DNA of 64,000 nt. It comes from Scyliorhinus canicula (taxonomy: Eukaryota). Position 1 is the first letter of the stretch. Each line of letters opens with the position of its first letter. Below are positions 33,031-33,497 of the stretch, piece by piece. A program made the position numbers and the translations under genes. Under the pieces are notes generated by a model, which saw only the letters and a list, made by a program, of their open reading frames with translations, ran no database searches and was not told where the DNA came from. The stretch spans positions 66,896,649 to 66,960,648 of the forward strand of contig NC_052153.1 of the NCBI RefSeq assembly GCF_902713615.1. Reading direction: 5' to 3'.

Positions 33031-33150
33031 CAATCATAACGGGTAACTGGAGTAAGGAGAGAAAGACTAATAAAATGAGATATTAACCAAAGATTATAAC
33101 AGATACTCTGCTTGCACCCCCAGGATTACCCGGAAAACAGAAAGCACAGG

Positions 33151-33497
33151 ATGAAGCAAGGACTGCTGACATGCGTTTGGATCATCGCTGGACTTCTGCA
33201 GCTGCGCGCGCAACGGACTGTTTTAATAAACCCCACACCAGACCCGAACACTACCACATAACAGCCACCACCAGCTCGGACACTACACCACACATAAAGA
33301 CAGACATCGAAACCCCCACTTGGTGCGAAAACATTGTTGGATGGAACTCCCATTCATACATAGTAAAGACCCTTCTAGTAATTGTAATAATCTGCAGTAT
33401 CATTCAGACACTCCAACTCCGTAAATGGCGAGCAAAAGCCTCCGGCTCCCCGATATATACAGTCCAATCCCCCTTCTTTGGAATTCAACAAAATTAA
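33151..33497 (+). pseudogene. Putative accessory ORF B: small type I membrane protein (~115 aa, one frameshift) at the env position
   Basis: Acceptor CTCTGCTTGCACCCCCAG ending 33123; ATG 33151 gives MKQGLLTCVWIIAGLLQLRA (signal peptide-like). After a frameshift near 33255 it joins the frame of ORF 33171-33497: T/P-rich ectodomain, TM YIVKTLLVIVIICSIIQTLQL, basic RKWRAK. Confidence 0.6.

Follow-up and report, generated by a model that had tools for sequence, protein, structure and literature searches.

The window, i.e., the whole stretch of 64,000 nucleotides of Scyliorhinus canicula DNA that was analysed (64 kb), contains a decayed provirus, which is bounded by LTRs at approximately 19039-19807 and 33885-34659 and has the following features:

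19039..19807, + strand: 5' LTR, sharing 696 of 771 aligned bases with the 3' LTR
19812..19829, + strand: primer-binding site of the tRNA-Arg(TCT) type, decayed in the window copy
19983..19993, + strand: candidate leader splice donor, AAG/GT in relatives and GC in the window copy (five leaders compared by eye)
20117..26856, + strand: gag, broken, interrupted by a nested Gypsy element and a SINE
21003..25871, + strand: nested Ty3/Gypsy element with its own LTRs, foreign to the provirus
26857..31538, + strand: pol, broken, in frame after the TGA-CGG stop, order PR-RT-tether-RNaseH-IN
28573-29645: LINE/SINE insert in place of the RNase H stretch of the window pol
31544..31599, + strand: conserved C/D-box (K-turn-like) hairpin directly 3' of the pol stop, Rfam matches below gathering score
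31795..31957, + strand: conserved non-coding block with a motif repeated twice, candidate RNA export or packaging element
32363..32978, no strand assigned: GC-rich repeat, an insert private to the window copy
33097..33123, + strand: conserved motif of branch point and acceptor, with an untranslated purine-rich stretch behind it
33151..33497, + strand: gene for a small type I membrane protein, with the frame broken near 33260-33265 in the window copy
33873..33884, + strand: polypurine tract (PPT)
33885..34659, + strand: 3' LTR

Besides these inserts, the provirus carries a LINE fragment and SINE-like repeats, and the LTRs of the Gypsy element nested inside gag (21003-25871) are 97% identical to each other. 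A young relative of the provirus has a coiled-coil Gag with one CCHC knuckle, the TGA-CGG stop and the order PR-RT-tether-RNase H-IN. In the relatives that were read, Gag starts without Gly2 and hence without a myristoylation signal there. The gag/pol joint TGA-CGG, which PMC13517186 gives as the type II readthrough context of VEEV and CTFV, was found in eight of eight copies checked, the window (26854-26859) included, and lies at 3256-3261 in the young copy L071. The complement of the primer-binding site of the young family is present in a genomic tRNA-Arg(tct) gene, and a donor-like AAG/GTAAA recurs by eye among the leaders of the element.

The element was compared by eye over a 46-residue RT core with the reference RTs of the supplement of PMC7947760, whereby 37 positions are identical in SnRV, 27 in WDSV and 23 each in FFV and Loki-Lca. 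It is on this by-eye count, and not on a tree containing SnRV, that we file the element in the SnRV clade, which corresponds to clade Huo of PMC6001957. The nearest database Pols are those of frog and coelacanth elements (45-50% identity), and a quick tree made without SnRV groups the element with frog and coelacanth Pols as well. Like the SnRV clade, the element has a coiled-coil Gag, one CCHC, an in-frame gag-pol stop and a dual RNase H, which in a young copy is recognized as PF17917/PF17919 at 465-596 and PF00075 at 662-805. However, the stop context is TGA-CGG in the catshark element and UAG-GGC in SnRV (PMC13517186), and env, which is full in SnRV and in CmiERV lineage I, is absent in the catshark lineage. 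Two other labels were considered and dropped, namely foamy virus/FLERV, since the element has a CCHC and a pol in frame with gag and shares only 23 of 46 residues with FFV, and lokiretrovirus/Odin, since it likewise shares 23 of 46 RT residues with Loki-Lca and has no F-like env. The best PDB match of the window RT is a foamy virus, because SnRV is absent from the PDB matches. ERV-Spuma.0-Sca (PMC10699275), with a gag of 2259 nt, a pol of 2946 nt and an env of 1326 nt, was set apart by its annotation alone.

Based on the window letters alone, an earlier note had claimed that the stretch from pol to the 3' LTR contains neither an env nor remains of one, and none was found in the window or in any copy examined. 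In the window, the slot between the pol stop and the PPT comprises 2346 bp, or 1730 bp minus the private 616-bp insert, and its longest open stretch is at most 169 aa. In 18 of 21 other copies, representing all families, the same distance is 1566-1833 bp (it was not measurable in three), and the ATG ORFs in the slots of other copies across all families do not exceed 142 aa. An alignment of the slot from 15 copies consists of conserved non-coding islands with many non-triplet indels, which is not like a decayed coding gene. Apart from the small ORF at its 3' side, the slot is non-coding. Furthermore, 30 young copies were picked by their pol end, and thus blind to the slot; all of them are colinear, none of the 30 has an env, and the small ORF is intact in 29. 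A full env in other copies, of which the window could have kept a deleted remnant, was therefore seen in no examined copy. ERVs with env do occur in the genome (78 matches). Among eight env-bearing loci examined, of which the genome holds more, no helper of the same clade was found, the Pol being only about 30% identical (27-42% by segment) in seven and without a match in one. The env-bearing ERVs L087-L093 belong to another clade and are young, with env frames of up to 566 aa and LTR pairs that are up to 99.9% alike. In the elephant shark, the SnRV-like CmiERV lineage I is depicted with a full env directly after pol (PMC4422223, read by eye), and therefore the slot was originally an env slot.

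For the small ORF, a splice acceptor ending at 33123 and an ATG at 33151 had been proposed. Both are present in the window (AG at 33122-33123), and both the acceptor motif and the ATG are conserved among copies. The stop lies at 33495-33497; in the window copy the ATG frame ends after 36 codons, and the downstream frame is open to the stop. A DNA search for window-family copies gave 995 candidates, of which 40 were scored and 30 were fetched, including the window's own. All 30 close copies have the ATG, and in six of them the frame is natively open for 113-115 aa, so that the intact ORF of about 115 aa expected by the earlier note exists in these as well as in the 29 young copies. Near 33260-33265 the window deviates from each of the 29 other close copies, which means that the frame break is private to the window copy. 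A frameshift had indeed been suspected, but near 33255 instead of at approximately 33260-33265, and the translation given for it across the break is thus a few residues off. The share of open copies, six of 30, is similar to that in a simulation of neutral decay (25-29%), and dN/dS within the window's subfamily is 0.81. Therefore, the old copies are fossils and not host genes, and host domestication was rejected because of their neutral decay.

Since this decay after insertion is neutral, the ORF could be regarded as a neutral remnant, or as a chance ORF overlying a cis-acting RNA signal. To this explanation the comparison between subfamilies is opposed. In four subfamilies of 31, 5, 4 and 5 copies (three intermediates among 50 copies being omitted and two outliers handled apart), the net dN/dS between subfamilies is 0.19-0.64 in the ORF frame, with a bootstrap P(dN>=dS) of 0.000-0.072, vs. 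0.76-2.45 in four control frames, and the predicted dN/dS below 1 is thereby confirmed. An antisense frame sharing the third positions mirrors the signal (0.17-0.97), as expected. A wider family set, consisting of 32 of 33 chosen open copies with one lost to a filter, includes further families at 50%, 38%, and 35% identity, whose residues are conserved despite saturated synonymous sites. Comparing the window family with the young family, which share 35% identity, gives a pS/pN of 0.60/0.66 for the signal, 0.69/0.59 for the stalk, 0.89/0.30 for the membrane-proximal helix together with the TM, and 0.67/0.25 for the tail. The focus of purifying selection is thus the helix next to the membrane, together with TM and tail. 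Moreover, the ORF frame is preserved in all families although the flanks take non-triplet indels. The ORF is conserved and was selected during viral replication, and a neutral origin, which we consider highly improbable, is already refuted by the dN/dS between subfamilies and the pS/pN across families.

The encoded protein is 114-119 aa long across families and has one TM by hydropathy (KD19 1.5-2.5, 32 copies). It starts with a hydrophobic signal-like segment in 32 of 32 copies, which would be cleaved off, and continues with a Ser/Thr/Pro-rich stalk of about 28-38 aa that has an N-glycan sequon in 28 of 32 copies. The stalk is followed by a near-invariant Cys, a Trp/Tyr-rich segment and the TM, which begins at residue 57-72 of the precursor and opens with a near-invariant Tyr-x-x-Glu. 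At least three Lys/Arg are located within the 15 residues past the TM in 31 of 32 copies, and the tail has a conserved Tyr and Pro-Phe/Ile-Phe-Gly. From the charges, an N-out topology can be assumed. The amphipathic moments, calculated without a control, are modest on the ecto side (0.30-0.65) and 0.40-0.95 on the endo side, where they are inflated by Arg/Lys. An AlphaFold model of low confidence (pLDDT 62.6, pTM 0.29) consists of two helices joined by a disordered stalk, with a helix at 57-98. Hence, the signal-like start, sequon, Thr/Pro stalk, single TM, basic patch and tail that had been read from the window recur in the 32-copy set, but not the Cys of the TM: the invariant Cys is just outside the membrane, and the one near the inner end of the TM varies. 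A furin site, a fusion peptide, heptad repeats, and CX6CC, which are the marks of class I Env, were not found in the protein, and it has no Pfam env match.

Across families, 29 of 32 copies match the motif of branch point and acceptor, two of them at a shifted AG. Between acceptor and ATG are 25-83 purine-rich bases that are not fixed in frame, and this stretch is therefore untranslated. In two gene models from the catshark genome the match to the element starts exactly at the acceptor, and two gene models of a sister species fit the acceptor by frame; all of these are predicted chimeras with host exons, P0005 being left out of the acceptor check. Among the indexed sequencing runs, no carrier of the element is registered as RNA, and two raw RNA runs were used in their stead. 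Reads were mapped once, to a young copy instead of the window copy and with a cut-off of 92%. In a stranded oligo-dT run nearly all reads derive from a single strand, to be taken as sense under the usual convention of the tool, and the depth is 35-62 over the slot vs. 2-11 over gag-pol. The depth over the leader is low, and the rise starts about 700 bases upstream of the acceptor. Of the earlier claim of a spliced RNA, the acceptor, which is conserved and used by four gene models, has thus been substantiated, whereas a leader-to-acceptor joint was detected in none of four runs on the young copy at this cut-off. The missing joint and the early rise could be due to 3' bias or pol-deleted copies, to an acceptor located further upstream or a start inside the element, or to the loss of divergent leaders. 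In the young family two strong acceptor-like sites (L071 7589 and 7633) are located soon after pol, near the rise in depth; they are not conserved in the window family.

Homologues of the protein outside Scyliorhinus were not found in the databases searched. A profile search against 1.84 billion representatives gave six matches, which are five Scyliorhinus gene models and one repetitive chance match. A first word-index search returned three candidates, none of which scored, and a longer search only two Scyliorhinus models. There was no homologue in viral and metagenome contigs, the best values in the ESM Atlas (0.88 and 0.84) are leads only with nothing significant, and the PDB gave 0 matches by sequence at E up to 10, with the profile as well as with a single sequence. 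Foldseek, with the low-confidence model as query, found nothing at E up to 0.001 in BFVD and PDB, and no similarity to known fusogens was detected in PDB, Pfam or BFVD. In the literature covered, from which most subscription journals and the original SnRV paper are missing, no env-less SnRV-like shark ERV with such a gene is described. What emerges is a genuine family of viral genes that had not been annotated before and is located where it was not expected, for which the evolutionary case is strong and the mechanism is one that we infer.

A small, selected membrane-protein gene occupies the env position family-wide. The young sister family is large and recently expanding: the best 150 of 5330 candidates are all 100% identical, in a ranking by score that favours identical matches, and partial LTR pairs in four young copies are 99-100% alike. 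Non-autonomous derivatives occur as well (L083 3714-9552, L086 3486-9628, and L069 4696-9468), which have no pol but kept gag and the small ORF and recall the gag-only BHIKHARI elements. In having a high copy number without env, the family resembles IAP, MusD, and ERV-L as well as BHIKHARI and Odin. We know of no membrane-protein substitute kept by IAP, MusD or ERV-L, and none is kept by BHIKHARI and Odin, as far as these have been described.

Similar to the FAST proteins p10, p14, p15, and p22, with which it had been compared, the catshark protein has less than 200 aa, one TM, an N-out orientation, a polybasic patch, a Cys near the membrane and, in the predicted model, a disordered tail. However, FAST proteins are described as having neither a signal peptide nor glycosylation (PMC3952855) and a TM within 40 aa of the N terminus (PMC3701659), whereas the TM of the catshark protein starts at 57-72, behind a sequon-bearing stalk and a signal-like start. 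The likeness thus extends to the small single-pass build and the polybasic patch, but not to the signal-like start, the sequon, the position of the TM and N-terminal acylation, the myristoylation motif being absent; the inner Cys next to the membrane, where palmitoylation would be the alternative, is not invariant. The second small protein to be compared is sORF2 of the Drosophila element MDG1, for which capsid passage from cell to cell without env has been shown (10.1101/2025.03.14.642691). Both are selected small single-pass proteins of an env-less LTR element with a basic patch after the TM, but sORF2 belongs to Metaviridae, is encoded upstream of gag on unspliced RNA, has about 70 aa and is mostly myristoylated (10.1101/2025.03.14.642691), whereas the catshark gene is that of a vertebrate retrovirus, located in the env slot behind an acceptor, and its product has a sequon in addition to the signal-like start. 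At the sequence level, no similarity between the two was found. Membership in either group was rejected, as the signal-like start is present in 32 of 32 copies, the sequon in 28 of 32 and the myristoylation motif MGxxxS/T in 0 of 32. By analogy, the protein may nevertheless play a FAST-like role.

Since the stalk is spared by selection and the membrane-proximal helix, TM and tail are held by it, the protein would work at the membrane and its inner face and not as a receptor-binding domain. As Gag has no myristoylation signal and the family repeatedly amplified without env but never dropped the gene, the simplest account is that the protein is an Env substitute. Like sORF2 in Drosophila, it would anchor the non-myristoylated capsids at the plasma membrane and aid their direct cell-to-cell transfer, a reading whose chance we set slightly short of even. 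Accordingly phrased as a course of events, env would have disappeared long ago from a catshark lineage of the SnRV clade, which either retained or acquired a type I membrane glycoprotein of 114-119 aa, whose gene would be carried by a subgenomic RNA via the conserved acceptor. The signal peptide and the basic patch would route the protein to the plasma membrane, with the glycosylated stalk as a dispensable spacer, and the Cys/Trp helix, the Glu-bearing TM and the Tyr/Pro/Phe tail might cluster it and gather capsids of non-myristoylated Gag. Such clusters could favour a close contact, or a limited fusion, between the cell and its neighbour, and the capsids might then pass between cells, e.g., from a follicle cell into the oocyte, with no free infectious virion involved. 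We count in favour of this the absence of env, the intact ORF in 29 of 30 young copies, the near-identical young copies, the selection, the basic patch past the TM, the Gag without Gly2, the pol-deleted derivatives that keep gag and the small ORF, the full env of the elephant shark element in the same slot and the precedent of sORF2. Against it we count the signal and sequon that are unlike FAST, the modest ecto moments, the lack of similarity to known fusogens and the lack of a leader-acceptor joint. Moreover, env-less ERVs such as IAP, MusD, and ERV-L amplify well without a substitute. A post-TM basic patch drives Golgi export of the FAST protein p14 (PMC3952855), but small viral membrane proteins that are not fusogenic, e.g., PRV p13, exist as well (PMC3701659), and the heavily glycosylated stalk could hinder membrane apposition. 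We regard true fusogenic activity as unlikely, although well worth considering. The same holds for the furthest-reaching proposal, which we put forward tentatively and at similarly low probability, that an orthoretrovirus replaced Env with a new signal-bearing minimal cell-cell fusogen and spread with it from soma to germline in many waves to the present. If it is a fusogen, Retroviridae would have their first infectious route independent of Env, and the small fusogens a new class of type I proteins.

The type I topology, the glycosylated stalk and the selection on TM and tail would also fit a host-modulating accessory protein, whose TM Glu and tail pair with a host immune receptor, MHC or a restriction factor and thereby remove or block it. 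In a variant of this, the protein would block superinfection, while the element itself retrotransposes intracellularly; Vpu and adenovirus E3 are the models. Pfam gave weak rows for adenovirus E3A/GP19K and K1, which at E 0.1 are not significant. The Tyr-x-x-Glu at the TM start, which we take to recall the adaptors CD3-zeta/FcR-gamma, was counted for this explanation too, but that likeness is unsupported, as there is neither a PDB match at E up to 10 nor a zeta-family row in Pfam. SnRV, for its part, belongs to the complex viruses and has a number of small accessory ORFs (PMC12193657). The tail, however, has no ITAM or ITIM spacing, and immune evasion would be of little benefit to an element confined to the germline. 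We consider host modulation rather unlikely; if true, a new accessory-protein family would act on the oldest adaptive immune system. Of the earlier proposal that a small membrane protein replaces env for cell-to-cell spread or immune modulation, the selected gene in the place of env and the absence of env itself are established, and both purposes are still leading options.

Gag without Gly2, the env position and the env-like acceptor and topology are furthermore consistent with a mere assembly anchor, i.e., an env shrunken to signal, anchor and tail, which would bring the non-myristoylated Gag to a membrane inside the cell for budding, in the manner of foamy Env and with no transfer between cells. 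The Gag of SnRV is presumably not myristylated either (PMC2717909), and by eye the Trp-rich pre-TM segment is loosely like the env anchors of other ERVs of the catshark genome. However, blastp against six env frames of this genome gave a best E of 1.1, and no env with the same anchor is present among the 1.84 billion representatives. As the conserved sequon and the basic export patch fit delivery to the surface better, the assembly anchor seems quite unlikely to us. The catshark lineage also has a wider importance: ERVs that lack env are taken to stay within the cell expressing them, and this lineage allows a direct test of whether vertebrates, too, have the Env-independent route of Drosophila. 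As a test case it rests on a gene kept to synonymous saturation, on near-identical young copies and on sense RNA.

Some further observations concern the surroundings of the gene and the host genome. The C/D-box hairpin (window 31544-31599; L071 7489-7544) has RUGAUG ... CUGA in its closing stem in every family aligned, while its inner stem differs between families. Rfam gave only sub-threshold matches to C/D snoRNA and flpD, and the hairpin is possibly a candidate 15.5K/Snu13-binding element. The block at 31795-31957 (L070 5033-5181) is the most conserved non-coding part of the slot; its double motif can fold into two hairpins, making it a candidate RNA export, packaging or translation element. 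In the shark gene models P0001 and P0002 (HEPACAM2-like and UGT8 isoform) as well as P0003-P0005, host exons are joined to the acceptor of the element, and some of these chimeric models thereby give the host protein the membrane anchor of the element. As host gene models make use of the acceptor, shark genes may gain exons for a membrane anchor from the family. Finally, at least nine similar old copies are clustered on one small contig (C31 9.49-11.19 Mb; also C27:726419), which is probably a segmental duplication.
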